A DNA stretch of 19,009 bases from Candidatus Helarchaeota archaeon (GTDB taxonomy: Archaea > Asgardarchaeota > Lokiarchaeia > Helarchaeales > RDOG01). Shown here piece after piece: positions 1-19,009 of this stretch (positions are counted from its first letter, which is position 1; the number at the start of each line of letters is the position of its first letter). Location: contig JALGVI010000058.1 in assembly GCA_029838215.1 (NCBI GenBank), positions 1-19,009 on the forward strand. The letters run 5' to 3'. The notes under the pieces are model-generated. The model made no database searches. It was not told the origin of the DNA and was given only the letters and a program-made list of their open reading frames with translations. The position numbers were made by a program, and so were the translations under genes.

Positions 1-818
1 TTGTGTTTTCCTATAGAACTATTTCGGGCGGCTTGAATTTCTCGAATGCTATCCTTATGTTTTCTAATGAGGTCGCTGAGCAAAGTTACTACTGCAGATT
101 CTCTTATGGCATGTGATTGTTTCTCCAAATTTGAAACGCGAAGATCCGCGCCTGTATAGAAATTCTCTCGCATTTGATCTATTTCTTTTCTATATGTGGT
201 GATTCTTTCATCCAATGTTTCACTGAGTGTCTTTTCTAAATTCCCCGTTTCTGTTTCCAATCGCGTGATTTGCTCCTTGATTTTCTCCAAGAATCTTGCT
301 TGTACTTCATCTAAAATGTCTTTAAACTGTTTCACAAGTGCATCAGTATTTCCCGACAAAGTCCCTTTGACTTGATAGAAATCAGATTCGATTTTTTCGA
401 TTTGGGCATTAAAAGCAGCCGCAATTTCCACGCTAAATACTTCTGCATTCTTTTGAAAGACCGTAATGTTATCTTCAAGCATTCCCTTAATGGATTCTCT
501 TAAATCTTTGGATATATTCGAAAGTGCTTCTTTTAGCGTGTTCGAAGCATCTTCAAGCAAGTTGGTAAGATCACTCAGAGCATCATCAGATTCCTTTCCA
601 ACCTTATCGAAAAGTTCGTTCAAGATCTTGTCTAATTCTTGTTCGTATTCTTCGAATTTCTGTTTTTGATCGTCTATTATGCTCTTTAATTTCAATTCGT
701 CTTTAAATGTCTTAAGCTCGGTGACTTTTTCTTTGATCTCTTGATCCTCAGGACTTAGTGCTTTAGCTCGGTCTGATACGTCTTTAATAAATGTTTCCGT
801 TCTTTTGAGAATCTTTAA
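1..818 (-). CDS. Frameshifted continuation of the TrmB-wHTH/helical-rod gene (3' partial, runs off the window edge)
   Basis: The minus frame with codons starting at 818, 815 ... 5 has no stop for 272 codons. It reads ...TETFIKDVSDRAKALSPEDQEIKEKVTELKTFKDELKLKSIIDDQKQKFEEYEQELDKILNELFDKV..., with the same E/K/L/I-rich amphipathic composition as 784..2295. It is bounded upstream by TAA at 821..819 and has no ATG for more than 100 codons, so it is not a plausible independent gene. Confidence 0.85.
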
Positions 819-2286: not shown

Positions 2287-2287
2287 A

Positions 2288-4156: not shown

Positions 4157-4488
4157 GAGTTCATCTCCTTCTATTCATCCATTATTTCTATTTCTTTGAA
4201 TTTTCGCCCCAATACGCTCAAAACACGCATTGTTTCAATGTCGATAATTTTTCGCAATATTTGTCTTGTAAAAATTTAACGTTAATTATTTATAAAAAAC
4301 ACTCTTCTAATTTATCCTTATCAGAGATCAAACAAAGCTTATTCTCATGCATGCCGTCCTTCATAAAGGAGGATCATGGAAAGAATTTATTATGATAGAT
4401 TACAATTAAGGTAGAGGCTTGTCAAACCACAAAAGTTTCTGCCAAAAAAAACGCAAACACCTTAAATTAAGGCAAAACTTGAAAGAAA

Positions 4489-4962
4489 TCATCGCCTTCG
4501 TTTTGAGAATAGAGCTTTTAATTCTGAATTTATTGCTGACCTAGCACTCATCCCTGACATTGGTCGAGGCTTGGGTGCAGGTGGTTTCGGTGCTGGTGGC
4601 GGTGCCACAGGTGCTCGGGGTGCTCCTTGTCCCTGTACCGCGGGTGCCTGAGGGGCAGGACTCAAAGGCTTCATTGGAGCTCCTCCTCCCCCTACCGGAG
4701 CTGGAGCTGCAACTACTCCTGAAGCAACACGCTGCTTAAGCGTGCTCACTTCTCCTGTTAAAGAGGCAAGGCTGTTTGTCACTGAAGTAATGCTATTCAT
4801 GCAATCCGTAAGACTGCCTTCTATTGCCGAGATCCTATTACCAAGGTCATCTATAGCACTCACTACTATGCTCATCACTCGCGTTAGAATTTCTGATATT
4901 TCGTCCAAACGCTTTTCGATGGGCTCACCGCGAATACTATCCATAAAATCGCCAAACTCCAT
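4489..4962 (-). CDS. Small protein: N-terminal coiled coil, Pro/Ala/Gly-rich linker, C-terminal amphipathic basic helix (candidate actin-binding motif)
   Basis: Heptads ISAIEGSLTDCMNSITSVTNSLASLTGEVSTLKQRV, linker APPPAPKPPAPKPRP, end SARSAINSELKALFSKRRR. A GGAG SD-like motif lies upstream. The function is inferred. Confidence 0.8.
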   Translation of the reverse strand: MEFGDFMDSIRGEPIEKRLDEISEILTRVMSIVVSAIDDLGNRISAIEGSLTDCMNSITSVTNSLASLTGEVSTLKQRVASGVVAAPAPVGGGGAPMKPLSPAPQAPAVQGQGAPRAPVAPPPAPKPPAPKPRPMSGMSARSAINSELKALFSKRRR

Positions 4963-5059
4963 ATAACCAGCTCCTATTCGTTTAAAAATTTATCATTAAT
5001 CTTATAATTTGTTCGTTATATCTTATAAAAATATAAATCTATAAATCTTATTTGGATAA

Positions 5060-5677
5060 TTATTTTTGCATCTCAATAATTTTTTCCAATTCTTTAATCC
5101 TTTGATCTTTTGTCTTCAATTTTTGTTGCCAAGTCGCTTCAAGTTTCTTGAATCGTTCTTCGTTTTCTTGCATTTCTTCATATTTTTTCTTCCAAGGCTT
5201 TAATTCTTCGATGTCTTGAAGCAATTTTTCAATTTCTTGTTGTTTTTCGGTAATGGTCTTTTCCTTTTCTTCAATTTCTTTTTTCAGGTCATCACACTTG
5301 GTGTTCAACTCTTTAATTTGCGCGTCCAATTCCTCAATTCGTTTTTCCTTTTTTTCACACATTAACTTGTAGTTGACATCCGGTTCCAGTTGGTATTTTG
5401 CTTCTAGCTCCTTAATTGCTTCTAATTTCTCGCGCATGACCTTTTTAACATTTCGCACGTGTTTTTCTCTTTCTTCTTGCAATTGTTTTTTTAATTCTTC
5501 TATTTCTTCTTGGAGTTCCTGTCTTTCTTCCGCGGATACAGATCCAGATTCTTCAATCTGTCCTCCAGAACCTTCCAATCGAACTTGCAGGTCGATAATC
5601 CTTTTCTGAAGTTCTAAAATATTCGCTTGCTGGATCAATATGCGTTCATCTTTGTTCTCGTCTTCCACTGTTGCCAC
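5060..5677 (-). CDS. About 205-aa coiled-coil rod protein
   Basis: Near-continuous E/K/Q/L/I heptads. The first 49 codons of the tracked ORF (from 5824) overlap fdhD on the other strand and are compositionally different, so the start is more likely the GTG at 5677 (or 5668). Confidence 0.75.
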   Translation of the reverse strand: MATVEDENKDERILIQQANILELQKRIIDLQVRLEGSGGQIEESGSVSAEERQELQEEIEELKKQLQEEREKHVRNVKKVMREKLEAIKELEAKYQLEPDVNYKLMCEKKEKRIEELDAQIKELNTKCDDLKKEIEEKEKTITEKQQEIEKLLQDIEELKPWKKKYEEMQENEERFKKLEATWQQKLKTKDQRIKELEKIIEMQK

Positions 5678-5762
5678 CGAAAAATTTCGAGAGATATTAT
5701 TTTTTTCCTGACCAGCTCTAATTAAAGTATTGCCTAATCTAAATAAGAAATCGGTGCAAGAC

Positions 5763-6524
5763 ATGGTGAATAACTCAACTGAGTTCCGTGAATTAGTTAT
5801 TGAAAAGCATGACGTCACTCGCATTCATAAAAAAGAGTACTCAAGATCTAAAGCGGACATTGCAAAGGAAAAAACCAGCAGGCTGATGATAAATGATGAA
5901 ATAGTCATTAAACAGACATACACGCCAAAAAACATCAAGGAAATGGTCATTGGCTTCCTTATAAGTGAGGGTTTTATTCAAAAATCCACGGAACTCAAAT
6001 CTCTTGAAATTCATGAAGATCAAATATCCATTCAAGTCGAAAAATCTACGTCTAATCTTAAAAAAACTCAAGAAATGAGACTTCGGCCCGATCCGCAACC
6101 GATACAGGTTCATTCGGACTTGATGATTGATGTAGCGACGATATTCAAGGCACAAGATTATCTAAATGACAATTGCAAGTTATGGAAACTAACAGGGGGA
6201 ACTCATGCTGCTTGTATTGTAAACGAAATGGGCAAAATCATCGCGCTAAATGAAGACATCGGAAGGCATAATGCATTCGATAAAGCCATTGGACATATCT
6301 ACTTGAATGATATGGATCCTTCCAAATTATTTATTGTTTCAACGTCCCGTCAATCTGCGAGCATGGTCCTGAAGGTCATTCGTGCAAGAATTCCCATCAT
6401 CATCTCGAATGCTGCTCCACTGAGTCATGGCTTGTATCTGGCAGCAAAATATAACGTGACTCTAGTTGGGTTTGCTCGATATCCATCTCTAACAATTTAC
6501 ACGCATCCCGAAAGAATACTATAA
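5763..6524 (+). CDS. fdhD: FdhD/NarQ-family formate dehydrogenase accessory (Mo-bisPGD carrier) protein
   Basis: Motifs TPKNIKEMVIGFLISEGFI, TGGTHAA, EDIGRHNAFDKAIG, STSRQSASMVLK and NVTLVGFAR. I prefer the ATG at 5763, which has GGTG upstream, over the TTG at 5730. Confidence 0.9.
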   Translation: MVNNSTEFRELVIEKHDVTRIHKKEYSRSKADIAKEKTSRLMINDEIVIKQTYTPKNIKEMVIGFLISEGFIQKSTELKSLEIHEDQISIQVEKSTSNLKKTQEMRLRPDPQPIQVHSDLMIDVATIFKAQDYLNDNCKLWKLTGGTHAACIVNEMGKIIALNEDIGRHNAFDKAIGHIYLNDMDPSKLFIVSTSRQSASMVLKVIRARIPIIISNAAPLSHGLYLAAKYNVTLVGFARYPSLTIYTHPERIL

Positions 6525-6538
6525 ATAAATAAAAGCCG

Positions 6539-6548
6539 ATTTTTTTTT
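6539..6548 (+). terminator. Oligo-T tract after fdhD (possible archaeal terminator)
   Basis: A run of about 10 T lies 15 nt after the fdhD stop. Oligo-T termination is established in archaea; activity here is untested. Confidence 0.35.
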
Positions 6549-6563
6549 ATCCGGTGAAGAAAC

Positions 6564-7073
6564 GTGTCGAAGTCAAATCCATTGTTGGGAACAGAGGTCA
6601 AGGTAAACCAATTTCGAAATGCGATCTATGAATTAGTGAAATTATTGCGAACCGAAAAACAAATGGACGATTCTCAGCTCATAAACGAACTAAAAGGCAT
6701 GGGATATTCCATATTTGAAACCTATCAACATTTTTGGAAGCCAAGTGGGGCTGAACCACTCGAAATCATTCAAGAAATTCATGCATTCATCTTTAGGAAA
6801 AAAGCAAAGCCTGAATACATCGAGCCCGAGCACTCCCCTTCTAAAAGCGGCATTAGAGTCATTGATCGCAAGTGCTGTTTTTGCAAGTACGAACGACCCG
6901 ATGTAGGACGAATAGCGGGCTGTAACATTACAAACGCAATTGTCGAGAAATATTTTGAATTATTGCACGAAAAAGATCCAAGCATTCCATTAGTCGATGG
7001 TAGGGTCGTGAGTAGCAAGACCTTTGGTGATAAACATTGCATCCATATTTACGACATTATGGAGGAGCCATGA
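6564..7073 (+). CDS. V4R/Bet3 (TRAPPC3)-like protein A, Cys-rich
   Basis: LKGMGYSI resembles the Bet3 LxxMGYxIG helix. It is followed by EIIQEIHAFIF, CCFC, AGCNITNAIVE and the V4R-type ending SKTFGDKHCIHIY. The GTG start has GGTGA at 6553-6557. Confidence 0.65.
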   Translation: MSKSNPLLGTEVKVNQFRNAIYELVKLLRTEKQMDDSQLINELKGMGYSIFETYQHFWKPSGAEPLEIIQEIHAFIFRKKAKPEYIEPEHSPSKSGIRVIDRKCCFCKYERPDVGRIAGCNITNAIVEKYFELLHEKDPSIPLVDGRVVSSKTFGDKHCIHIYDIMEEP

Positions 7074-7652
7074 ATGGTTGGAAAAGTCGCCACGAAATTG
7101 ATATCTTCATTCAGTCGAAACATCGAAACCGTATTTTTCATGTTGCTTTACAGGGAAATCACCGAACGGGTCTTGAACTATTTTCCTGATAAACAAGAAG
7201 AATTTTTAAAACAATTTGGGAGAGAAGGCGCGCGACGAAGCTGTGACAGGCACAAAACCGTCCTAAAATTTGCTCCCGAGGTCACCGATCCTGAAAAAGT
7301 CAAGGAAATGGTTGAGTTTCTTTGGCTCGTTGCCTTCGGAAGATCCCCCACTCTCGACTATTCCATCGAGAACGAGCAGGATTATTTCATTGTAACGCTG
7401 TGGATTGATGAATGTCCTGTCTGTTCAGGCTTGCCAAGAGAAGATTTAAAAGCCAAATCTTTGGACATTTTTAAGAACAAATCGGATGGATATGCTTGCA
7501 TCCTAACGGGATTGATCGAAGGTGCAGCCAAATTCTTGCTCGATCTTCAAGGACGTTCCGAACAAATTAAAATTACAGAATCCAAATGCATGCTGGACGG
7601 ACACGAAAAAATGGAAATTAAAGTAAAATTTGGCAAAAACATTGATAAATAA
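7074..7652 (+). CDS. V4R/Bet3 (TRAPPC3)-like protein B
   Basis: FFMLLYREIT, FLKQFGREGARR, EFLWLVAFG, ECPVC, YACILTGLIEGA (cf. Bet3 YSNxLCGVLRGALE) and IKITESKC...MEIKVKF. The ATG directly follows gene A's TGA, with a GGAGG SD. Confidence 0.75.
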   Translation: MVGKVATKLISSFSRNIETVFFMLLYREITERVLNYFPDKQEEFLKQFGREGARRSCDRHKTVLKFAPEVTDPEKVKEMVEFLWLVAFGRSPTLDYSIENEQDYFIVTLWIDECPVCSGLPREDLKAKSLDIFKNKSDGYACILTGLIEGAAKFLLDLQGRSEQIKITESKCMLDGHEKMEIKVKFGKNIDK

Positions 7653-7690
7653 CGTGCGATATCATATTTTAAGGACCGAGGTTTGATAAG

Positions 7691-8077
7691 ATGTCCGACA
7701 AAAAAGACCCAACCAATGACGACGTGGAAGAACTTGTCTACCAAATCTCCGAAAGACTGGTCGACGATCAAGTTGCCGATCTTTCTGAAGATATTAAGGG
7801 AGAAATCGAAGAACTCCTCATCTTGAGTTTTCACCCCGATACAGACATTCATGCTCTGGATCAAACATTACGAGAACGCGTCGAAAGAATTCGAGAAGTC
7901 ATTACTGATTTTAAAGAAGACATTAAAAAATCAATAAAAAATGAAATATTGGACGATCTCCGAAAGAATAAATCCAAAAAAGGACCTGCAAGACAACGAA
8001 AACGCGTTATTCTGGGTCCTGTTGAAAAACCAATGAGAAAAAAACCAAAGAAAAAGAAAAAACCTTCCCAAGAATGA
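7691..8077 (+). CDS. Hypothetical helical protein with an acidic N-terminal half and a Lys/Arg-rich tail
   Basis: 128-aa ORF with a GAGGT SD-like motif and protein-like composition. No family recognised. Confidence 0.7.
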   Translation: MSDKKDPTNDDVEELVYQISERLVDDQVADLSEDIKGEIEELLILSFHPDTDIHALDQTLRERVERIREVITDFKEDIKKSIKNEILDDLRKNKSKKGPARQRKRVILGPVEKPMRKKPKKKKKPSQE

Positions 8078-8352
8078 ATGCTTCAATGCCAATCTCAGCA
8101 TCCATTCAAAAAAAGCATCTAGCAAAAAATCATCGAACTTACTTGCAAACCACTTCATTATAATAAAAAGAATTCAACTTCTATTATGCAAAATTCAACT
8201 CAAATCGATCTTCGTTTTTACTTCAAGATCTTTTACATGAAAAGTTTCTGAGTGGCTACCACAAAATTCTTAATTCTGCCATTCTTTGAGTGTTTTGAGT
8301 CGTTTACACGTTAGTTTAAAGGATTTAAGAACTTGACAAACCAAGGATCCAA

Positions 8353-8360
8353 TTTATATT
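8353..8360 (+). promoter_or_regulatory. TATA-box candidate for a small RNA starting near 8384
   Basis: TTTATATT lies at -31..-24 relative to the first G of the hairpin, which is normal archaeal spacing. The AT-rich background limits confidence. Confidence 0.35.
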
Positions 8361-8383
8361 CTTAAACTACGTAATAACATTAA

Positions 8384-8486
8384 GGATTTAGGTTCACCCA
8401 TTGAGGAATTCTTTAAGGACTTTGCCATATTCATCCCTCAAATAAATATCCTTTTTCTTCAATGACACCTAAATCCATTTTTTTTT
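8384..8486 (+). ncRNA. Candidate structured small RNA: 93-nt end-to-end hairpin followed by T9
   Basis: GGATTTAGGT (8384-8393) pairs with ACCTAAATCC (8467-8476). CATTGAGGAA (8399-8408) pairs with TTCTTCAATG (8455-8464) with one G-U. AAGGA (8415-8419) pairs with TCCTT (8449-8453). A T-run follows at 8478-8486. No family recognised. Confidence 0.45.
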
Positions 8487-8847
8487 GCAAGATTTTTTTC
8501 TAGATCAACACAAACATGTAATGATTTGATTAATTTTTCACGACTTCAAAATTTTAATTTTTTTTCATCGCAATTCACAACTTATTAGTTAAAAAACAAG
8601 TCTAATTGAGAAATCCATGATTCGCATGAAGAATTCCTCCGAATCTCAATTCAGTTTAATTTGGTGGATTTTTCTGAGATTGATGAAAAGATGAGCGTTT
8701 TTTTTAACTTCTTCCAAAATATGCATCATATATGAAGAATCATTTTTCGCATCAATGGTTTTTTCATATTTCTTGCCTGAAAACTCAACTTTTTAGGATA
8801 AATAAAATTTAAATTAATAAAAGTGAAAAAGTTTTCATTAAATTGAC

Positions 8848-9516
8848 ATGAGGCAAAAAATAATGGAACTATTCGAAGCATTTCCTGATGGCGAGCTGCA
8901 ATTCGTCATTCAAGCGTGTTTACTTAAGGACATCATCAATGAAGAAAATCTAGATAAAGTTTTTCTCATTCTAAATCATGCTGGACGAGAAGCATGGATT
9001 TGGATTGGACCGAAAGCCCAAGTGCAAAAAAAGTTCGCATGTGCAAGAGCCGCTCGCAGAATAATTAGCGATCGTCGTCTATCCTATCGAATTAGAACTG
9101 CTGATGGATACGGAGACGAGCCGAAAGAATTCAAATCTCTTTTAGATTGTTCACTTCGGACCGCAATGAGAAAGGAGGGACCTCCATTAGAAATTCTCAA
9201 GCTTCAACGGTACCTCTTGAGAACTCCAGTTCCCGAAGGCATGAGGAGAGAAGCATGTATCATCGGGAATAAAATGTACGTTACCGTTACTAAACAAGCA
9301 ATGGGACAGGTTAGTACGGTATATGGTGAAAATGACTTCATTCCTGACGGAGTCGTAGACTTGCCGGAAAATTACCGTATCAGAATCTTCAGCAGTCACG
9401 GAACCATTCAAGCCGTCGAATTCTTAGTTCCAATAAAAAAAGAGAAAAATAGATCCACTAACCAAAAAGAATCAGCTTCTTCTAAAAAGGACAAAAACAC
9501 GAAAAAGGACAATTAA
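8848..9516 (+). CDS. Single gelsolin-domain protein with an additional C-terminal domain (Asgard 1DGelX-type architecture)
   Basis: KVFLIL..GREAWIWIGPKA...KFACARAARRI...GDEPKEFKSLL is a gelsolin repeat. It is followed by a second beta-rich domain (REACIIGNKMY...DGVVDLPENYRIRIF) and a basic tail. The start is at 8848 or 8863. Confidence 0.8.
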   Translation: MRQKIMELFEAFPDGELQFVIQACLLKDIINEENLDKVFLILNHAGREAWIWIGPKAQVQKKFACARAARRIISDRRLSYRIRTADGYGDEPKEFKSLLDCSLRTAMRKEGPPLEILKLQRYLLRTPVPEGMRREACIIGNKMYVTVTKQAMGQVSTVYGENDFIPDGVVDLPENYRIRIFSSHGTIQAVEFLVPIKKEKNRSTNQKESASSKKDKNTKKDN

Positions 9517-9625
9517 AACTCAGGAAACACGACTAAAAAACGTGAGAAAAAAACTTGGCCAAAGCCAGTATGAGTACCTCATTATTAATATATGCGAAAA
9601 AGAAATAGAAAGTTTTTACTTGTAA

Positions 9626-10222
9626 TTACTCCTCTATAAGTCCAAGTTTTCTTAGCTTCTCAACAACGACTACAACATCGTCTTCTTGAATGCCCATTAG
9701 TTCTGCAATGTCATCATACGTGCGCTTTCCATCACAATTCTTTGCAAGTTCATATTCATCTTGCGTTAAAGTCCCCATCTTCACGATCATTTTAGGTAAT
9801 TTCTTCTTTAGCTTTGGTCTCGGGACTTCAACCTCGGCAACCTTACCATTCTGGAGAATTTCGTCAATGATAGGGATGAAATCGTCAAACATCTTGATGT
9901 TCCCTGACCAATTCGTCAGATCGAACTTTTTAAGGAACTCCTCAAGTGCCTCACCCATTGCCTTCATCGCAATGTTCTTGTCATCTGATTTGTCTGCCGC
10001 AGCACTGATCATCAATCCTTCACGAAAAACCAAAACTACATTATATGCGTGCATGTCAAGAACTTTAATGACACCTTCTCCCTTGGTAACTTCTGCTGCA
10101 AAATCCTTTAATGCCGTGAGAAACCCGCTAATTAAATCTTCATTGAAATCTATACTGCCATATTTTCTTGCCATTAGACAAACTCCACTTTGGGACATGA
10201 TGACATAAGCATTATGAATCAT
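9626..10222 (-). CDS. Longin-like domain fused to a C-terminal winged HTH
   Basis: MIHNAYVIMSQSGVCLMARKY...DLISGFLTALKDFAAEV...WSGNIKMFDDFIPIIDEIL matches the longin (AP sigma/mu-N, TRAPP Bet5-like) pattern. CDGKRTYDDIAELMG...VVEKLRKLGLIE is a wHTH. Confidence 0.75.
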   Translation of the reverse strand: MIHNAYVIMSQSGVCLMARKYGSIDFNEDLISGFLTALKDFAAEVTKGEGVIKVLDMHAYNVVLVFREGLMISAAADKSDDKNIAMKAMGEALEEFLKKFDLTNWSGNIKMFDDFIPIIDEILQNGKVAEVEVPRPKLKKKLPKMIVKMGTLTQDEYELAKNCDGKRTYDDIAELMGIQEDDVVVVVEKLRKLGLIEE

Positions 10223-10324
10223 GAATCAAACCTTCCTTTTACAAATTCAATCATAATTGAAGTTTCAAGCTTCAATTTTAAAAGAATATCTTTCAACACT
10301 TAAAAAGAATTTCCAAATTTTACT

Positions 10325-11242
10325 TTATAAATTAAATTTCTTAAAGTAAGCGATATTTTTTTGGAGCTCGACTTGAAGGTGACGGGCTACGGTATTGCAT
10401 TTGGTTCGCAAGAGAAAAACAATGGGACAGTTAAGAATTTCATCGGAAAGTGTTTCGTAGTACCCCATGCCTTTTGCCAATATCAAGTCGGAGTTATTGA
10501 AGTACTTGGCAAAACCCGGCGAAATTTCATCGAGAATCACGCCCACATGGTCGGATTCGGTCGTGATTATTTCCAATCGAGGATGTTTTTTCGTCATCTC
10601 AAGTAAACCTGCGGTTTCGGCATCTTCCAGCGTGGCGTCATTTAATGCAGGGCTTCCTTTTACAGCAACGGTAACACGTGCTCCGAGTGCTAAAAGTTCT
10701 TGAATGAGGAATTTATCGAAAACAATTTCACCAGCATTATCCGTGAGATAGAGGATTTTTTGTTCCGGCTTGATATATGCATGAATTTTGGGAATATCAT
10801 CGATGACAAGGTCTTCGCTTGCTTTTTGAATGCCATTCTTCAATTTTTCTTCGAGATTCTCCACGGTGACCTGATGATCTGCGATGTTAAATTCCATGTT
10901 ATTTCCGACAATGCTCATGAGAACGGCGTGTCGAAATCGATCCAACCCGGGAGGGAATTTATCAATTTCTTTCTGAATGAGTGGCTCGAATTTTAAGGCG
11001 ATTCGGTTTGAAGCGATCTTTTCATTCAAGTAAGGATCAGGATTTCCCGAGATCTCTGCAATGATGCGATCGCGATACGTGCCTAAAACGGCAGGTATTT
11101 GATCGGATGTGAACTTTTCCTCGAATAATTTGGATAATTGTCTTGCAATTTCGAATTGTAGGTCCTCGTCAGTAGTAGCAAGTTTGGCTTGTTTAAGACC
11201 ACGGCTAAACAAACACTCGGCACATCGCAGGCTGACTTTCAT
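10325..11242 (-). CDS. DUF89/ARMT1-like metal-dependent damage-control phosphatase (PH1575-like)
   Basis: N-terminal CxxC (CAEC), DPY..K, GN, YLTDNAGEIVFD, VK..PALNDAT.EDA, LAKGMG..E and LLRTKC. Confidence 0.9.
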   Translation of the reverse strand: MKVSLRCAECLFSRGLKQAKLATTDEDLQFEIARQLSKLFEEKFTSDQIPAVLGTYRDRIIAEISGNPDPYLNEKIASNRIALKFEPLIQKEIDKFPPGLDRFRHAVLMSIVGNNMEFNIADHQVTVENLEEKLKNGIQKASEDLVIDDIPKIHAYIKPEQKILYLTDNAGEIVFDKFLIQELLALGARVTVAVKGSPALNDATLEDAETAGLLEMTKKHPRLEIITTESDHVGVILDEISPGFAKYFNNSDLILAKGMGYYETLSDEILNCPIVFLLRTKCNTVARHLQVELQKNIAYFKKFNL

Positions 11243-11266
11243 GATGAAAAAAGACTTAATTTTTAG

Positions 11267-11275
11267 AAAAAAAAA
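11267..11275 (-). terminator. Oligo-T tract directly after the tpiA stop
   Basis: An A9 run on the plus strand (T9 on the coding strand) starts 1 nt after TAA. Confidence 0.35.
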
Positions 11276-11276
11276 G

Positions 11277-11960
11277 TTATGCCTTCAAGGCGGCTTCGGC
11301 CATTCGCGTCAATACTGATTTCGGATCTTCAGCTTTAGTAAATGCGGAAGCGAGAAGCACGCCCTTTGCACCGAGGTTTAAGGCAGCAGTAACGTCTTCA
11401 GCCTTGGATACACCAGCACCACATAGTGGGATTACATCCGGTCCATTTTTCATAATGAGTTCGACGCTTTTTTCGACTTTTTGAGGTTCTGCCTTAGAGA
11501 TTGAAATACCAGTTCCAATAAGTTCAGGCAATTCGAATGCAACATACGTAGGATTTAGAGTGGCAACAGCTCCAGATATTTGAGGATTAGCTGCACACAC
11601 GCAAGTTTCGAGTTTTAATTCGTTCATTCGTCTGACCACTGCCATCACGTAGAGTAATTTAATTTTCTTTTCGGCATGGTTGATTAGGGTTCCTTTTGCT
11701 CCCGCTTGGACAAGAGCCTCAGGAAGAATATGTCCTGTATGTGATCCTGGCGTGATGGCATCAACGTGTTGAGCAAAGACTGGTATGTCACACTCTCGTG
11801 CAATACGGCGGAGATCGATTGCCTGCACGGCGACGGTAATGTTAACATCATATTGTTTTGAAACTTCTTCGCATATTTTTGCAAGGGCAAGGGCTTTATC
11901 ACCTGTGGCTTGAATATAAGTCTTGAAATTAATCAAGATAATGGGAAGTTTTGGCACCAT
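11277..11960 (-). CDS. tpiA: Triosephosphate isomerase, archaeal type
   Basis: INFKTY, GSHTG, LINHAE, ELPELIGTG (catalytic Glu), LCGAG and GVLLAS. I prefer the ATG at 11960, which has GGAGTGA 5 nt upstream, over 11984. Confidence 0.95.
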   Translation of the reverse strand: MVPKLPIILINFKTYIQATGDKALALAKICEEVSKQYDVNITVAVQAIDLRRIARECDIPVFAQHVDAITPGSHTGHILPEALVQAGAKGTLINHAEKKIKLLYVMAVVRRMNELKLETCVCAANPQISGAVATLNPTYVAFELPELIGTGISISKAEPQKVEKSVELIMKNGPDVIPLCGAGVSKAEDVTAALNLGAKGVLLASAFTKAEDPKSVLTRMAEAALKA

Positions 11961-11980
11961 TTTAATCACTCCATTTTTTA

Positions 11981-13099
11981 TCATTTAATGAATTTCACGG
12001 TATCGATGGAATTAAAAGCTTTGAAGAACTTAAGAGCTTCCGAATAAGCAATTGCCTTCAATGCCTCTCTCGTACGGGCATCCACGTCATAGATTTCATC
12101 GAAGAATTGTTTGATTGCATATTTCGAGTTTTTTCCGAATATAATGCCTTCGGGGCGGGTATCTCCCTCATCATAACCCCGTGAAATTGTCCACTCCTTT
12201 ATTTTATCAAATAGATCCGGTTCAAAAACTTTTAGGACGTCCCAAGCAATATTTTGCCAATAAGTTCCGACATTGCCTTTTCCAATCAATCCCTTTGGAA
12301 AATGTTTCGCTATCAGTTCAATCGGTGTTCCGGTAATGCCGTGTTGGGCAATTTTAACGCCATTTTCTGCCAAAGACCGCGCGATTTCAATTGTTCGAGG
12401 GATGTCGATGGATAATTGCTCGACGAGCTTACCTGAATCATCAAATATATTTCCGTGAGTAGATCCATTCGCAATTGCAAGAAAATTTGGATGAATATCT
12501 TTCTTTTTTAATTCATTTATGTAAGTAGTCGCTTCTTCCACGGTTGTTATGACTAAACCCGAATCATCTCTTTTTCCGATTTCTCCAACTTCCACTTCTA
12601 AGCCGAACTCTTTGCCCGACATGTTGTCTTTGATGAAATACGCGAGTTCTGTCGTGACTTCGATGTTTTGCTGTAATTGTTCTTTTTCTGTCAAACCATT
12701 CACGTTAAACAAAAAGGAGGCATCAATGGCAAAACTCGTGTACCCCGCGTTTATTTGCGCTTTTATTAAATCCTTGACAACGGGGACATCTTTTTCAGGA
12801 TTCTTGATCGTGAGATGATCACCATGAACGATGAAATATGGCCAGTCATTTCTTTCTGCCGCTTCATGTATGGCTTTGGAATACGTGGCAGGTGTCTGTC
12901 CGGTATATCCACCCGATAAATTACATTCAGATTTTGCAAGTTCGAAAATGACAACGGTATTAAATTTTTTTGCGGCTTCAAAAATACCATCTACTATGCC
13001 GTTAGTAATCCTGGTATTTGCTGCCAGAATGATGGATTTTGCATCTTTTAATTTTTTATATATTGTTGAACCGGGTAACGATTCAAATTTGTAACCCAT
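11981..13099 (-). CDS. fba: Class II (metal-dependent) fructose-bisphosphate aldolase
   Basis: HGDH, GYTSFAIDAS, LEVEVGEIG, LAIANGSTHG, AQHGITG and KGNVGT. It lies between PFK and TPI. Confidence 0.92.
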   Translation of the reverse strand: MGYKFESLPGSTIYKKLKDAKSIILAANTRITNGIVDGIFEAAKKFNTVVIFELAKSECNLSGGYTGQTPATYSKAIHEAAERNDWPYFIVHGDHLTIKNPEKDVPVVKDLIKAQINAGYTSFAIDASFLFNVNGLTEKEQLQQNIEVTTELAYFIKDNMSGKEFGLEVEVGEIGKRDDSGLVITTVEEATTYINELKKKDIHPNFLAIANGSTHGNIFDDSGKLVEQLSIDIPRTIEIARSLAENGVKIAQHGITGTPIELIAKHFPKGLIGKGNVGTYWQNIAWDVLKVFEPDLFDKIKEWTISRGYDEGDTRPEGIIFGKNSKYAIKQFFDEIYDVDARTREALKAIAYSEALKFFKAFNSIDTVKFIK

Positions 13100-13189
13100 G
13101 AAAAATCACCTAAATTATTTGTTCAAATCAGATTTGAATTTAAATAGATAAAAATGAAATCGTGTTGATAATCGGAAAATTTCCTGCTA

Positions 13190-14410
13190 TTAGCCTGTTA
13201 GTGTCCAGTTCCAGAATTTAGACGCATTTTTGAACCGCCATGGTTGTACATATCGGATTTTTTGTGTTGCAACAGATAAATCCTTGATCACAAACTTTGA
13301 TCCATCCATGACAACCATTTTTCCAAAGTTTTGCTCATGCATCAAATCGATCAATCTGATTCCATAATTAATGGACATGTATGAATCAAAAGCACTCGTT
13401 CTTGAGCTCCGACAAATATATCCCGTTTGAATGGACCGTGTTCGTGTTTCCAGCTTTTCAGCAATATAGTCAGCAATGATTTTTCCAATGCCTAACTTGT
13501 CAAGTCGCACGTGCCCAAATTCGTCTTTGGGAATTTCCTTGGATGTTTCTTCGACCTTTTTTTCCAGAATTTCATCCACGTATCCTTCAGCAACGCATAT
13601 GACGGCATAATGCTTACCACGTTCGAAACGATGCTTGATTATATCTACAACCGAGTCAACGTTAAAGTTTATGTGGCGATATTCTTCTAACTCGGGATAT
13701 AGATCAGGATCTTCGACTTTAGCACGGTACAATTCTGGTATTAGAATTGCATGAGCACCGCCAGCCATTCCTGATTCGAGCGCAATCCATCCGGCCCTTC
13801 TTCCCATGGTCTCCACGATCAGGATTCCACTCGTGGCTTTGGCATCAAAGATCAAGTTGCGAATGATGTTAGTCACGGTGTTGATGGCAGTATCAAAGCC
13901 AAAGCAATAATCCGTTCCCAATACGTCATTATCGATCGTCTTAGGAGCTCCAACCGTTGGAATCCCATTTTCATACAATTTATATGCTACTCCAAGAGTG
14001 TCATCGCCTCCGAGACAAGCAACGGCTTTTAAATTTAATTGTTTGATGACTTCCTTGCACTTCTCAAAAGCTCCGGGGATCTTTGAGAGATTTGTTCGAG
14101 AATTTCTGAGAATACTTCCGGATTCATATGCAATATTGCTAACGCCAATTATATTTATACCATTAATTGATGAAATGTGAGTTCTATTCGGATTGAGTGC
14201 CTCGGGAACTAATATTGAAAAATCACCATCCATTAAACCCTTATATCCATCATGGAACCCAACCACTCCAATATTTCGCTCATATGCCGCATAAGTAAAA
14301 CCCTGAATGGTAGCATTTAAACCCGGTGCAGGTCCTCCACCAGTTAAAATTCCTACATAGCCACTCAAATCAAAATTTTGTATTTTCTTTGGTAAATCTT
14401 TTATCATCAC
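13190..14410 (-). CDS. pfp: PfkA-family 6-phosphofructokinase, probably PPi-dependent
   Basis: GILTGGGPAPGLNA, GGDDT, PKTIDND and ETMGRRAGW. Asp in GGDD together with Lys in PKTIDND is the established signature of PPi use. Confidence 0.9.
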   Translation of the reverse strand: MMIKDLPKKIQNFDLSGYVGILTGGGPAPGLNATIQGFTYAAYERNIGVVGFHDGYKGLMDGDFSILVPEALNPNRTHISSINGINIIGVSNIAYESGSILRNSRTNLSKIPGAFEKCKEVIKQLNLKAVACLGGDDTLGVAYKLYENGIPTVGAPKTIDNDVLGTDYCFGFDTAINTVTNIIRNLIFDAKATSGILIVETMGRRAGWIALESGMAGGAHAILIPELYRAKVEDPDLYPELEEYRHINFNVDSVVDIIKHRFERGKHYAVICVAEGYVDEILEKKVEETSKEIPKDEFGHVRLDKLGIGKIIADYIAEKLETRTRSIQTGYICRSSRTSAFDSYMSINYGIRLIDLMHEQNFGKMVVMDGSKFVIKDLSVATQKIRYVQPWRFKNASKFWNWTLTG

Positions 14411-14582
14411 TGATCTTCTCCATCTTTTTGATACAAATTGCTACTTGACATGAATTTAGTAGAAAATTTTCGACAAGAAAAGATCGGATCTCCGTCTTTA
14501 TATCTTTTTAAGTCAAATTTTTGGAGAAATAGATCTTTAAAATCAGAATTGGTAACAAATAAATAAGATAGTTGTACGTGGA

Positions 14583-15152
14583 TTATTTTTGAACGCGACC
14601 TGCCCCTCTATATGAGATCTGGATGCGATTAGAATTCAAGGACTTGGTTTCTACACCTTCCGTGAAGATCTTGTAGTCCACTTGAAATACTTTTGACACG
14701 GAGTTAACGATTGACTTGATCGCATTGGAGAAAATAATGTTTAAAGCCTGAGCAGGATCCATCATTAAACCATTCATTTGAAGGGATTCTGTCAAAATTT
14801 TCATCTCTTCTTCTCCAAAAGTATAGGAAAAATTAAGAATTATGTCAACTGGAGAAGGACCAATGGGAAATTCGATTTTTAAATTCGAAGCATCAAAGGG
14901 AAAAACATTCGTTAACCAGAATTTAAATAAATTTGGACCCTCTTTTCGAAAAAAACCCAAATAATTGCCCAAATTACTCTTATTTTCCAACCATTTACTC
15001 CAAGCAGTTGATAATTCCTTTTCGAATGCAAAGGCGCTATCAAGGTTCATTCGGATTTCATCTTCAAATGCTTGCGTAATGCGAGAAGATTCAAGACGAT
15101 GAAACATGATTAAACGGTCTATCATAACGGCAAATCGGTGCGACATGAACAA
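14583..15152 (-). CDS. Hypothetical protein, possibly a Cys-free Bet3/V4R-fold protein
   Basis: 189-aa ORF, with a probable ATG at 15146. Its helix/strand order resembles 7074..7652. The fold is inference only. Confidence 0.65.
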   Translation of the reverse strand: MFMSHRFAVMIDRLIMFHRLESSRITQAFEDEIRMNLDSAFAFEKELSTAWSKWLENKSNLGNYLGFFRKEGPNLFKFWLTNVFPFDASNLKIEFPIGPSPVDIILNFSYTFGEEEMKILTESLQMNGLMMDPAQALNIIFSNAIKSIVNSVSKVFQVDYKIFTEGVETKSLNSNRIQISYRGAGRVQK

Positions 15153-15320
15153 CTCGTCCTATCAGTTAATGGTAAGAGATGGTCGATTCAATCTTAAATT
15201 TCTTTTTAATTTTTATCGAATCCAATTTAAGTATTTTTTCCTTGAGTCTTTCTAATCATGTTTAGATGTTAATGAAAAAATATAAATAAAAAACGGAAAG
15301 ATATAGAAATATGCCGAAGA

Positions 15321-16868
15321 TCAATCGATTTTAGAACCGCAATACGTGCAGAACTTCCAAGCTCCTGCTATCTTTTGATGACAATTTGGGCATATCCTTT
15401 CTTCATTTGTAGCGACTGTGGGTGCTTCTTCTTTTGGAATGACTTCTAAAACAATTTCTTCGGCTTCTTCACCCTTGGAACTAATTCCTGCATCCGATAC
15501 GAGAAATGGAATGAAAGAAGGCTTATATTCTTCTTCTTCATCGTCCTTTCGCTTCAAAAAAGTCATCCAAGTCGGCACGTCATCATCCACTATTATGGGT
15601 TTTGGTTGTTCAATAGGGCCTGCTATGAAAGGTACAAATTCGGAATCTTGTCCATCTTGAGCCTCGATTTTCTCACTAGACTCTACTGCTGAAATCTGCT
15701 CGAAAAGATTTGGTTGAGAAGGTGGTGTTTCGAGCTCGAATGCTGGAGCAGCGGGTTGTTCTGCAGTGAATGGAACAGGTCCTGAAGGTGCTTCGGGCAT
15801 TTCTGGTGCAGGAGGGAATTGAAGCTCCGATGCTTTCAAAGATGGAGACGGTGCAGGTTCTGGTGTAACTGGTTCGATCTTGATTGGTTCGAGTGGTGCC
15901 GGTGTAGGTGCTGATCCTGCACTTGATGGGAGAGTTGGATGTTCGGGAAAAGAAGGAGGCGCTGAAGGAGGAGATGTTGCCGGTGCAGTCGATGGTTCCA
16001 GTTCATCACCCGGACCACGTAATATTTCAAGAGCCTCATCAAGCGTTGGCGTGGGTGAACTTGAAGGAACCTCCATTGGTTGAGGAGGAGGCGTCCGAAC
16101 TGCAGGGGGTGGTGCAGGTGGAGGCGCACTTGGGGGTAATGAAGACCCCAGTGATGAAATTTGTGGTGGTATTGGTTTTGCTTGTACTGGAGGGGGTGCT
16201 GTAAAAGAAGGTATTTTTGGAGGACTTGGTGGCGCAGACATCGAAGGTGTTGGCAAAGAAGGTGAAGGTGATGAAGGTGCGGCAACGGGTGGAGGTGTAA
16301 GAGATGGCACAGTAGGTGGAGCACTCGTTTCAGCCTGAGCCTGAACCTTGATACCTATCTTCTTTTCCAAAAGTACCTCTGCTAATTTAGTAAATAGATC
16401 GTGTATGTTTTTGCCATTCTTTGCCGAAGCCTCATAAAAATAGATGCCCATTTGTTCGGCCAAGGCCTGTGCCTCGGAAGTAGCAACTGCACGATCTGGA
16501 AGGTCGGCTTTATTTCCCACGAGAATCAGAGGAATTCCTCCACAGTTTTCCGCAACCTCACTAAACCACTTTGGAAGGTTATCATAGGATTCACGATTAG
16601 TCAAATCAAAAATGGCAAGTGCCGCCATTGCACCCTTATAATAAAGCGGGCGAATGTACGAAAACCGTTCTTGTCCTCCGGTATCCCAAACTTGCATCTT
16701 GATTTTATAACCGCCGACTTCTACCAGTTTAATGGCAAAATCGACACCTATGGTCATTTTGTAGTGGTCCTCAAAACGACCTTCCGCAAATCGAATGGTT
16801 ATTGCAGTCTTTCCTACAGCACCATCGCCCACGACGATGATCTTAAACAAATAATCGTATTCAGACAT
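15321..16868 (-). CDS. Rab-like small GTPase fused to a long Pro-rich linker and a C-terminal double-CxxC Zn ribbon
   Basis: EYDYLFKIIVVGDGAVGKT (G1), TIGVDF (G2/RabF1), KMQVWDTGGQE (G3), YYKGA, NKAD (G4) and SAK (G5). About 300 aa of Pro/Ser/Ala/Glu-rich sequence follow, then CPNC...CTYCG at 15321-15392. Confidence 0.92.
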   Translation of the reverse strand: MSEYDYLFKIIVVGDGAVGKTAITIRFAEGRFEDHYKMTIGVDFAIKLVEVGGYKIKMQVWDTGGQERFSYIRPLYYKGAMAALAIFDLTNRESYDNLPKWFSEVAENCGGIPLILVGNKADLPDRAVATSEAQALAEQMGIYFYEASAKNGKNIHDLFTKLAEVLLEKKIGIKVQAQAETSAPPTVPSLTPPPVAAPSSPSPSLPTPSMSAPPSPPKIPSFTAPPPVQAKPIPPQISSLGSSLPPSAPPPAPPPAVRTPPPQPMEVPSSSPTPTLDEALEILRGPGDELEPSTAPATSPPSAPPSFPEHPTLPSSAGSAPTPAPLEPIKIEPVTPEPAPSPSLKASELQFPPAPEMPEAPSGPVPFTAEQPAAPAFELETPPSQPNLFEQISAVESSEKIEAQDGQDSEFVPFIAGPIEQPKPIIVDDDVPTWMTFLKRKDDEEEEYKPSFIPFLVSDAGISSKGEEAEEIVLEVIPKEEAPTVATNEERICPNCHQKIAGAWKFCTYCGSKID

Positions 16869-17450
16869 TAGGCATCTAAATCCTTACAAAGTTATTGACC
16901 CATATAAACATGATAAAATAGAAAGGTAAGAATTTTTTCGTTTCTAACTGAAGCTTGCTCATCATGTTATAAATTTTTGAAAGACAAAATTAATTTTCGG
17001 CTATTATAAATTTAAATATATTTCCAGATGAAATCAAATATTTCCTTTAATGAACCTCGAAGAAAACCAAACGAATATGAAGGATTTAATGACTCAAACG
17101 AGTTAATGGAACCTTAATGACAAGATTTAAACTATAATGAAAGAATTTCAGACCTACAGTAATCACTCATTGATGAAAAAAGCATTAAAATGCCCCTAAA
17201 ATAACGGAGTATTCCTGAGAACGAAATCTTCGAATTGACTCAAAAGCCTGCACTTCACTGACGAACTCAATGCATTTAGATGAAAAAATATTCAAATCCT
17301 AACATGAGAATTTTTGAACTAATTCAAAAAGAAGGAAAAAGATAAAACTCACTCATGCTAAAAATTAAATAGGTTTTCGAATTTGAAATTAATACTAACG
17401 AAACAACAATTTGACATAAAAGATCATGATAAAACTTGAGTTGAAAAAAA

Positions 17451-17984
17451 ATGGGCACGTACAAACTGAAATGCTTGCTCTTGGGCGATGCGGCTGTTGG
17501 AAAGACGAGCTTGATAAAGAAGTTCATAAAGGGATCCTTTGCACGCGATTATAAAATGACAATAGGCTGTGACATCTTTACGAAGGATATCACGATTGGA
17601 GAAGGACAGGATCTCATCACGTTATCCATCTGGGACATTGCAGGACAAGAAAGGTTCAAGTTTTTTAGATCTAGTTTCTATCGTGGAGCTGCTGGTGCTC
17701 TGGTTGTCTTTGATCTAACCCGATATCCAACTTTTAATCCAAATGTTGTGAATTGGATTCGGGAAGCATGGAGTCACACTGGACGCATTCCAATCTGCTT
17801 AATAGGGAATAAAGCCGACCTGGTAAACATGCGAAGCGTGCGTGGGAACGATGCTCAGAAGTTCTCGGATACTGTACCGTGTCCATACATTGAAACTTCG
17901 GCAAAAGAAGGACAGAACGTCGATGAAGCATTCAGTGCTCTTGCAGAAGTAATGCTTCAGACAATGAAGCAGAAAGGTGTTTAA
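17451..17984 (+). CDS. Rab-like small GTPase, stand-alone, no prenylation motif
   Basis: GDAAVGKT, TIG, WDIAGQERF, FYRGA, NKAD and ETSAK. It ends MKQKGV with no C-terminal Cys. Confidence 0.95.
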   Translation: MGTYKLKCLLLGDAAVGKTSLIKKFIKGSFARDYKMTIGCDIFTKDITIGEGQDLITLSIWDIAGQERFKFFRSSFYRGAAGALVVFDLTRYPTFNPNVVNWIREAWSHTGRIPICLIGNKADLVNMRSVRGNDAQKFSDTVPCPYIETSAKEGQNVDEAFSALAEVMLQTMKQKGV

Positions 17985-17999
17985 TTTTTACTTCTTCTT

Positions 18000-18665
18000 C
18001 TAATCTTCGATGAGTAACGAAAGAATCAGTTCTTTTGATAAATATTTAATGCTTTTTATAACGATATTTTGAACCGACAAATTTTTTAAGATATCTTCAT
18101 CTATTCCTGCGTTGGAGAGAACTGCAATAAATGGAATATTCGCATTCTGGGCGGTTCTTGCATCAATCGCATGATCCCCAATTAAAACTGCATTTTTCAC
18201 CTTTAATTTTTTCATCAAGTAATGGATTGGTTCGGGATCCGGTTTATTTCCATGTCCCTTCCCAACGCCTAAAATCATATCGAAGAAATGGTCAATTCCC
18301 AAATGATTTGATATTATTGTAGCGGTTTTTGTTCGGCGATTCGTGAGTATCGTCATTTTAAATCCATTTTCTTTTAGTTCGCTTAATTTTTCTTTTACTC
18401 CCGTGAAAAGCTTGATTCTTTGAACTGAATTTTTATCGAAGTATGACCGGTATGTCTTGATGCATGAATCCAGCACGTTTTCATCAGATGTGACTTTTCT
18501 GAACATATTTCTTAGCGGAATTCCGATCATTTCGAATATTTCTTCTTTGGACAAAACTGGCAAGTGGCAATCACGTAGAACCTGCTGAAAAGTCACCATT
18601 ATGGCGTTTTTGCTATCGATTAATGTCAGATCCATATCAAAAATTAATAAAATATCTTCCATCAC
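18000..18665 (-). CDS. HAD-superfamily hydrolase (phosphoglycolate-phosphatase-like)
   Basis: Motif I FDMDLTLID, motif II LTN, motif III KPDPEP and motif IV IGDHAIDARTA. Confidence 0.92.
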   Translation of the reverse strand: MMEDILLIFDMDLTLIDSKNAIMVTFQQVLRDCHLPVLSKEEIFEMIGIPLRNMFRKVTSDENVLDSCIKTYRSYFDKNSVQRIKLFTGVKEKLSELKENGFKMTILTNRRTKTATIISNHLGIDHFFDMILGVGKGHGNKPDPEPIHYLMKKLKVKNAVLIGDHAIDARTAQNANIPFIAVLSNAGIDEDILKNLSVQNIVIKSIKYLSKELILSLLIED

Positions 18666-18760
18666 GGCTCATAGGATGCTTTTTCTTTTTTATTTTACTA
18701 CTTGGAGAAAATAATTCTTTATAACGTGATTTAAAAAGAGATGGAATGTTTTTGTTCGAG

Positions 18761-18792
18761 TTTTCTGGGTTAAACATTTTCTGGGTTAAACA
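18761..18792 (+). repeat. Perfect 16-bp tandem duplication TTTTCTGGGTTAAACA x2
   Basis: The units at 18761-18776 and 18777-18792 are identical, with no spacer. Confidence 0.95.
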
Positions 18793-18803
18793 GATGGTAT
18801 AAA

Positions 18804-18895
18804 CTTGGACATTAATGGACATGCCGGGAGACACGTCCTCGTCCAAGGGAGTTCCGTCCCATCTGAAGACGGAAACGCGCACCTTGGGGGTGCGC
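18804..18895 (-). ncRNA. Candidate omegaRNA (reRNA) scaffold
   Basis: Hairpin 1 is GCGCACC/GGTGCGC (18877-18895). Hairpin 2 is TTCCGTC/GACGGAA (18852-18874). Hairpin 3 is CTTGGAC/GTCCAAG (18804-18847) enclosing GGACGTG/CATGTCC. In the last two hairpins, positions that are mismatches on the plus strand become G-U pairs on the minus strand. Confidence 0.5.
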
Positions 18896-18930
18896 CATGA
18901 TGATGATTTTATTTATATTAATGTTTTTCG

Positions 18931-19009
18931 TCAGGTGGAAGCACCAATGGCGGCGGCGAATTCGTCCCATGCGTCCTGCCCGCGCCTTGCGATGTTCCTT
19001 GCGGCGTTC
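18931..19009 (-). CDS. tnpB: C-terminal 25 aa of a probable TnpB RNA-guided nuclease (5' truncated)
   Basis: It reads NAARNIARRGQDAWDEFAAAIGAST*. NAAxNI is the end of the RDxNAAxNI RuvC-III motif of TnpB. The Asp lies outside the window, so the call rests on 6 residues plus context. Confidence 0.6.
   Translation of the reverse strand, partial: NAARNIARRGQDAWDEFAAAIGAST

Follow-up and report, generated by a model that had tools for sequence, protein, structure and literature searches.

A Rab-like GTPase with a long disordered tail, conserved terminal motifs and a zinc ribbon in an archaeon of the Helarchaeota-type lineage

Here we describe a gene of Candidatus Helarchaeota archaeon that encodes a Rab-like GTPase with a disordered tail and a terminal zinc ribbon. 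The gene lies on the minus strand at 15321..16868 of contig JALGVI010000058.1, within a stretch of 19,009 nucleotides (positions 1 to 19,009, hereafter the window) of assembly GCA_029838215.1, which comprises 3.6 Mb in 170 contigs and is 94% complete. The open reading frame (ORF), delimited from the ORF list, its translation, Pfam and full-length orthologues, starts with ATG and encodes 515 residues followed by a stop codon, and this start codon is the right one since the N-terminus MSEYDYLFK shows no variation in an alignment with 11 orthologues. An earlier, sequence-only reading had delimited the same frame, and every string it quoted, including EYDYLFK (residues 3-9), IGVDF, KMQVW and YYKGA, is found where it had been placed.

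The protein consists of a complete Ras-superfamily G domain, an acidic, Pro/Ser-rich disordered tail of about 310 residues and a four-Cys zinc ribbon at the C-terminus. Pfam recognizes the two ends, with Ras at residues 9-165 (E-value of 1.9e-54, 184 bits, cutoff 21.6) and Zn_Ribbon_1 (PF13240) at residues 493-513 (4.5e-06, 26.7 bits, cutoff 25). Overlapping ORFs in other frames (e.g., 15836..16324), a local G+C content of up to 0.49 and a positive plus-strand GC skew across the gene all result from its Pro-codon-rich composition, and no DNA tandem repeats were found within it. The genome holds 54 Ras-superfamily ORFs, and only this one bears a long Pro-rich tail; the gene is the sole member in its genome of a conserved Asgard family of Rab-like switches, found mainly in Lokiarchaeia, including the Helarchaeota-type lineage.

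The G domain (residues 1-175; 16344..16868, minus strand) carries a full set of nucleotide-binding motifs, namely the P-loop GDGAVGKT (14), T39 of switch I, DTGGQE (62) with the catalytic Gln, NKAD (119) and SAK (148). These G1-G5 motifs, the Pfam Ras match and an AlphaFold2 (AF2) model that fits Rab structures, with a predicted local distance difference test score (pLDDT) mostly between 85 and 96, establish membership of the Ras superfamily. An exception within the model is the segment of residues 21-41 (window ~16746-16808), covering the end of helix 1 and switch I, where pLDDT falls below 50 compared with 85-96 in the remaining G domain; this may reflect switch flexibility or alignment noise. 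The five RabF motifs have the consensus strings IGVDF, KLQIW, RFrsiT, YYRGA and LVYDIT. Their counterparts IGVDF (40), KMQVW (57), RFSYIR, YYKGA (76) and AIFDLT stand at the corresponding positions of the protein, the first identical to the consensus and the other four with conservative changes. We use these family motifs (Pereira-Leal and Seabra 2000) as applied in PMC4915359.

The best 60 sequence matches in the PDB (phmmer) are all eukaryotic Rabs, led by Rab35 (2.6e-49, 170.9 bits) and followed by Sec4 and Rab1B, and the best 50 Foldseek matches of the AF2 model are likewise all Rabs, with template-modeling scores of 0.84-0.87 (normalized to the target) and 39-43% identity for Rab1b, Rab43, Rab35 and Rab8a; Rab8 and Rab11 are also among the best-matching eukaryotic Rabs. 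Both searches thus place the G domain closer to Rab than to Ras, Rho, Arf or Ran, bearing out the description of the domain as strikingly Rab-like that had been given from the letters alone.

Three other GTPases of the genome were compared with the PDB in the same way. A 302-residue paralogue (C143:12796-13704), which has a short, Pro-poor tail ending in CPxC...CPDCG, has a strongly Rab-like G domain (Sec4, 9.2e-41) and reaches 142.8 bits, below the 170.9 bits of the long-tail GTPase. A plain, tail-less Rab-like GTPase of 177 residues, encoded divergently in the window at 17451-17984 (plus strand), scores 134.9 bits, its best PDB match being the Thorarchaeota Rab 7EZB (2.4e-38), and paralogue C88 gave no match at 1e-35. 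Among these four proteins, the long-tail GTPase is the most eukaryote-like Rab relative.

No prenylatable C-terminal Cys motif (CC, CXC, CCXX or CAAX) is present. The protein ends in ...WKFCTYCGSKID (CTYCGSKID), and its last Cys, 6 residues from the C-terminus, is part of the C-x2-C-x10-C-x2-C ribbon. Since the prenylation site that defines the family is absent, the protein is Rab-like, yet not strictly a Rab. In place of a prenylated end, the G domain is followed by a spacer rich in Pro, Ser, Glu and Ala (residues 176-427; 15588..16343, minus strand), recognized by its composition, by the AF2 model and by its variable length and sequence in orthologues. Residues 176-489 contain 24.5% Pro, with a longest Pro run of 3, and carry a net charge of -30; the strings PPSAPPPAPPPA and QFPPAP were both located in the translation. 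In the AF2 model, built from a 64-sequence alignment, pLDDT stays below 60 over most of residues 179-489 and at about 40-60 over the spacer, whose sole secondary structure is a weak helix at 276-282, while the other ordered parts of the tail are a confident helix at 434-447 (~80) and the zinc ribbon at 490-515 (>90). The missing prenylation motif and the predicted disorder together uphold the claim of the sequence-only reading that a disordered Pro-rich region replaces the prenylated tail.

Searches with the tail returned little beyond the family itself. Pfam matched no family, WH2 included, to any of three tail pieces at E<=10; phmmer with residues 395-515 against 1.8 billion representatives found, beyond orthologues, generic zinc-ribbon repeats only, and a feature search of the ESM Atlas with residues 400-515 found generic zinc-ribbon clusters only (scores of 0.75-0.80).

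Alignment of orthologues nevertheless reveals sharp islands in a tail that is otherwise largely unalignable. We compared the query with 11 full-length orthologues of 43-62% overall identity (alignment A1), with a broader set of 64 sequences (A2) and, for the terminal module, with 38 sequences (A3). In A1, the G domain is nearly invariant, and identity to the query is 0.78-0.82 over the islands, compared with 0.32 over the remaining tail and 0.25 for its non-Pro residues; the individual values are 0.82 for TLDEALEI (275-282), 0.78 for FVPFIA (411-416) and 0.78 for EIVLEVIPK (471-479). The invariant tail residues are F411, F414, W434, F437, E445-446, P454, F455, L474 and E475. Working from a single protein, the sequence-only reading had guessed that the islands look conserved and had named unconserved islands as the outcome that would speak against it; the guess proved correct.

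The first island, an acidic mid-tail motif, TLDEALEILR (residues 275-284; 16017..16046, minus strand), coincides with the low-confidence AF2 helix at 276-282, and its L276, E278, A279, L280, I282 and L283 are unchanged across the 12 sequences. The form [ST]LDEAL[EK][IL]L recurs in the Hel clade and in one Loki-clade group, and F-x-TPDEIL stands in others. At residues 410-416, EFVPFIA (15621..15641, minus strand; cited previously as EFVPFIAGP, 410-418) provides the first F-x-P-F motif, with F411 and F414 invariant in A1 and A2; many relatives have 2-3 copies of F-x-P-F.

Downstream of it lie three motifs and the ribbon, all encoded on the minus strand. Motif A, VPTWMTFLKRKDDEEEE (residues 431-447; 15528..15578), is a short amphipathic helix with an acidic run, contained in DDDVPTWMTFLKRKDDEEEEY (residues 428-448, nucleotides 15525-15587) and supported by conservation and by the AF2 helix at 434-447. 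Its W434, F437, E445 and E446 are invariant in close orthologues, and the helix block has pLDDT values of 84 and 78; the wider family has S-L-F-Q-T-L-[ST]-Q-K at the aligned positions, where the clade of the window reads T-W-[IM]-x-F-[LM]-K. Motif B, the second F-x-P-F (SFIPFLV, residues 451-457; 15498..15518), has an invariant Pro and second Phe in the 38 sequences of A3 and a first Phe conserved in at least 90% of them, with the consensus F-[IVT]-P-F. Motif C, a strand-like EEIVLEVIPK (residues 470-479; 15432..15461), has L474, E475 and K479 invariant in A1, and its counterpart in the wider family reads L-R-I-I-P-N or [IL]-x-L-E-V-[IV]-x-K.

The ribbon, ERICPNCHQKIAGAWKFCTYCGSKID (residues 490-515; 15324..15401), follows the pattern C-x2-C-x10-C-x2-C, with CPNC...CTYC at 493-510, and is supported by Pfam, A2 and AF2. 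Its four Cys and G511 are invariant in all 64 sequences, the family pattern being C-x2-C-G-x-x-L-x5-F-C-x2-C-G, and the model shows two short strands with a pLDDT of 91-95. The two CxxC knuckles and the above-threshold score identify it as a Zn_Ribbon_1 domain, as the earlier mention of a double-CxxC ribbon implied, and metal binding is predicted.

These elements form an ordered terminal module. In a wider set of 120 proteins, 76 carry a Pro-rich tail with a zinc ribbon at its end, most of them with the same succession of an LFxxLxQK-type helix, F-x-P-F, a strand of LRIIPN or LEVVPK type and the ribbon. Motif A stands 16-21 residues upstream of the last F-x-P-F, the exceptions being a few weaker motif matches at 44-50, and the last F-x-P-F stands 32-99 residues upstream of the ribbon. 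The module thus persists in 38-76 proteins in which the linkers cannot otherwise be aligned.

Searching longer proteins with a profile of the module yielded 316 matches, nearly all of them proteins of 450-600 residues with Ras domains. Matches without a Ras domain are mostly fragments on short contigs, some flagged as partial, and include one unrelated multi-ribbon protein; hardly any protein outside this GTPase lineage has the module. In our survey of 201 sampled genomes of the phylum, with a module search at E<=1e-8, it was found in 35 of the 40 genomes of family f2, in 1 of 3 of f3 and in 1 of 21 of f6; the other families in the sample gave no match at that threshold. It usually gives one match per genome and belongs mainly to Lokiarchaeia, most of whose sampled genomes have it, with relatives named in databases as Candidatus Helarchaeota, Promethearchaeota or Lokiarchaeota archaeon; the Thor-, Hermod- and Hodarchaeota names that NCBI attaches to some matches suggest a sporadic presence in other Asgard groups.

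A quick maximum-likelihood tree of 162 G domains, unrooted, with taxa picked by similarity to the query and hence only indicative, places all 76 long-tail proteins on one side of a branch with a Shimodaira-Hasegawa-like approximate likelihood ratio test (SH-aLRT) value of 85. Four long-tailed proteins without a terminal ribbon, one of them annotated as partial, and one long-branch paralogue fall on the same side, and the next join (SH-aLRT 82) is with a family of about 300 residues that also ends in a Cys4 motif. Only one other ORF in the genome (C88:25496-27418; 640 residues) combines SLFQTL with FVPF; it has a C-terminal hydrophobic segment, likely a membrane anchor, and its motifs apparently lie in a non-disordered part, and we judged it a chance match.

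The long-tail GTPase shares with eukaryotic Rabs the overall layout of a G domain, a flexible C-terminal region and a terminal Cys-bearing element. Unlike in Rabs, these Cys form a zinc ribbon rather than a CC, CXC or CAAX site, the flexible region spans about 310 residues instead of about 30-40 and holds conserved short motifs, and switch II reads DTGGQE where eukaryotic Rabs have DTAGQE. The Asgard Rab-like GTPases described so far (Thor-Rab 7EZB and those of Lokiarchaeum; PMC10933270, PMC4915359) belong to the same superfamily and organism group and share its Rab-like motifs, and the neighboring GTPase at 17451..17984 is of their plain type, whereas the family described here adds a long extension whose end is a conserved module; the top 60 PDB matches of the long-tail GTPase do not include 7EZB. 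Closest in the G domain is the Asgard "Rab family GTPase" group of about 300 residues, represented in this genome by C143:12796-13704, which also has a zinc-binding Cys4 motif at its end (CPxCG). The tail of that group, by contrast, is about 100 residues long, folded and 1-5% Pro, and lacks F-x-P-F and the other motifs.

Two further systems offer parallels. Endocytic adaptors such as epsin, AP180 and Eps15 have a folded N-terminal domain and a long disordered chain in which DPF/W, NPF and FxDxF motifs recruit partners. Here, too, a folded N-terminal domain precedes a disordered chain of short aromatic motifs, although these are F-x-P-F, LFxxLxQK and LRIIPN, and we know of no clathrin, AP2 or EH domains in these archaea. 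The Haloferax ArvA/ArvB/ArvC system (PMC10927574) is a functional parallel only, in which an archaeal small GTPase is functionally linked to a zinc-ribbon protein: ArvC (DUF2072) is encoded in the ArvA operon, and knockouts alter the output of extracellular vesicles (PMC10927574). In Haloferax, however, the ribbon stands alone as a protein and ArvA is not Rab-like, and Pfam found no DUF2072 match in the long-tail GTPase at E<=0.01.

Previous work has portrayed archaeal Rab relatives as devoid of such extensions. Surkont and Pereira-Leal reported that archaeal Rab-like proteins have no extended C-terminus and no signal for the membrane, be it a prenylatable Cys, a polybasic region or another (PMC4915359). 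Tran et al. found no C-terminal extension in the Rabs of Thorarchaeota and MK-D1 and concluded that it probably arose during eukaryogenesis, and their BLAST searches for the Thorarchaeota Rab returned no REP or RabGGTase homologues (PMC10933270); their list of MK-D1 GTPases also has some with fused domains of unknown function, which they leave undescribed (PMC10933270). In contrast to both studies (PMC4915359, PMC10933270), the family described here does carry a long extension that ends in a conserved module. Full-text searches and a check for terms in Vargová et al. and Liu et al. yielded no description of this module, a coverage short of most subscription journals and hence no proof of novelty.

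Asgard small GTPases lack lipid anchors, and the cultured strains have shown no internal membranes, which leaves the positioning of these switches in the cell to be explained. We consider it an even call that, in this family, the terminal motif cluster and the zinc ribbon dock the Rab-like switch to a partner or membrane, with the spacer serving as a leash. The tail would take the role of the hypervariable region and geranylgeranyl anchor of eukaryotic Rabs; the ribbon and the short motifs would tie the protein to a fixed partner, which could be a protein receptor or the membrane surface, and the long flexible spacer would let the GTP/GDP-dependent G domain search a large volume for regulators and effectors. 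The layout of Rabs (G domain, flexible region, terminal anchor) would in this way be copied without lipid. The helix and F-x-P-F keep a constant distance, which suggests a single partner surface that reads the two together.

Several points weigh against such docking. No partner of the module was identified in this analysis, and the gene neighborhood differs between clades and offers no help from context. A search of public sequencing runs gave only two sediment DNA runs with small word shares, and no RNA run. The ribbon is of the generic type PF13240, which has no assigned function, such that protein, lipid and nucleic acid are all possible ligands. The Lys-rich stretch that precedes the ribbon in many relatives is missing here, which weakens a simple electrostatic membrane-anchor model for this member, and the conservation of the short motifs is equally compatible with intramolecular regulation. 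The sequence-only reading had gone as far as to see a GTPase fused to its effector platform; for the anatomy, a GTPase equipped with a docking platform of its own is a fair picture, while "effector platform" is an inference.

That compatibility with intramolecular regulation gives the main rival its content. The helix and its acidic run, possibly with F-x-P-F, could fold onto the G domain in one nucleotide state and be released in the other, so that the tail would act as a regulated output or as an autoinhibitor instead of anchoring passively, much like the C-terminal helix and acidic DEDDDL tail of Ran. The near-invariance of the G domain beside mostly unalignable tails fits many constrained surfaces, the full-length AF2 model shows the helix at 434-447 with a pLDDT of about 80 together with unusually low confidence at residues 21-41, and the module is almost never seen apart from this G-domain lineage. 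A fold-back element would have no need, however, of the intervening spacer of about 250 residues and variable length, and the full-length model gives low pLDDT to F-x-P-F and motif C and thus leaves them undocked. We deem the fold-back unlikely; co-folding of the G domain (1-178) with the module (428-515) on alignment A2, run without controls, scored 0.05 (mark 0.32) and carries no weight either way. More improbable still in our estimate is that the tail is an entropic spacer or bristle with no specific partner, its islands being kept for solubility or for folding of the ribbon. Most of the tail is indeed free in length and sequence and disordered in the AF2 model, but invariant aromatics in a fixed order and spacing over deep divergence are typical of binding motifs, and the motifs are not packed on the ribbon in that model; we regard this explanation as very improbable.

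The remaining rivals give the tail a specific but different ligand. Archaeal proteins of translation and transcription commonly have small four-Cys ribbons, fragments of relatives are auto-named "ribosomal protein L40E" by one source, and many relatives have the Lys-rich stretch just before the ribbon, all of which would suit a ribbon that binds nucleic acid, the ribosome or the transcription machinery and tethers the GTPase to RNA, DNA or ribosomes. The L40E names, though, stem from generic ribbon similarity, the present protein, devoid of that stretch and with its tail charge of -30, is unfavorable for such contacts, and its G domain resembles trafficking Rabs rather than translation GTPases, so that a tether of this kind appears quite improbable. 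Least credible is the actin-regulating platform that the sequence-only reading had proposed, marking it as speculative, in which WMTFLKRK would be a WH2-like helix, the acidic-Trp segment would resemble Arp2/3-activating ones and the Pro-rich region would recruit profilin. Its basis is a loose resemblance, in this one protein, of a helix followed by basic and then acidic residues, along with a window ORF (8848..9516) that has a weak, below-cutoff match to gelsolin (E 0.0066). Polyproline of the FH1/VASP type that recruits profilin has at least 5 consecutive Pro, and the longest run here is 3, giving no polyproline track. The Pfam search cited above matched neither WH2 nor any other family to the tail, W434 and K440-441 are clade-specific and replaced in the wider family (consensus SLFQTLSQK), the Trp precedes the acidic run rather than sitting inside it, and the neighborhood with the gelsolin-like ORF is not conserved in orthologues; the actin link finds no support in any of these features, and we give it hardly any credence.

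Returning to docking by the terminal module, a bolder form of it, tentative and rather unlikely in our judgment, is that the family preserves a pre-prenylation, protein-based mode of Rab targeting in which a long leash, resembling the hypervariable region, has at its end the ribbon and the bipartite aromatic motif, and these two together attach to a receptor of their own, be it on the membrane, on protrusions or on some other cellular structure of Lokiarchaeia; F-x-P-F would, if so, represent an archaeal docking motif of a new class. By-eye comparison with consensus strings for LIR/AIM, MIM1, PP1 RVxF, clathrin-box, PIP-box and RanBP2/NZF found none that fits well enough. The defined peptides and the small domain could serve as bait with which to catch the first physical partners of such an Asgard switch and offer a concrete way to ask whether the layout of Rabs is older than eukaryotes, and the family may show how such switches were positioned before lipid anchors existed.

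The surroundings of the gene vary across the family. Hel-clade orthologues adjoin genes for pyruvate/indolepyruvate:ferredoxin oxidoreductase and a class-I Glu/Gln-type tRNA synthetase gene, while Loki-clade members lie near MazG and NrdD and a convergent gene for a double-zinc-ribbon protein; as the neighborhood is not conserved, synteny identifies no partner. In three Loki-clade genomes (L013:6706-7476, L014:6738-7517 and L015:6800-7606, all on the minus strand), this convergent neighbor of the long-tail GTPase is a protein of 256-268 residues whose two ends are zinc ribbons, with a middle part predicted to fold; a search with that query gave no match in the genome of the window.

Within the window, an ORF of 189 residues directly downstream of the GTPase gene (14583-15152, minus strand) has no Pfam match at E<=0.01. 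Beyond it, a minus-strand row at 10325-14410 encodes phosphofructokinase (13190-14410), a class II aldolase-like protein (11981-13099), triosephosphate isomerase (11277-11984) and an ARMT1-like damage-control phosphatase (10325-11242); two of its genes overlap by 4 nucleotides, and the row looks like a glycolytic operon with a metabolite-repair enzyme. Neither the 189-residue ORF nor the second GTPase nor the glycolytic row stands beside any of the orthologues examined, and a proto-TRAPP/Rab module around the gene, which we also considered, is unsupported by synteny, its neighbors not being conserved. The plus-strand ORF with the gelsolin-repeat match (8848-9516) is 222 residues long and scores 16.7 bits, under the cutoff of 21. 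The minus-strand region at 3-5824 contains several long coiled-coil-like ORFs with only weak low-complexity Pfam matches, and beside them are encoded a STAND/AAA_16-like ATPase of 622 residues (2288-4156) and a protein with a TrmB-like N-terminal domain (784-2295).

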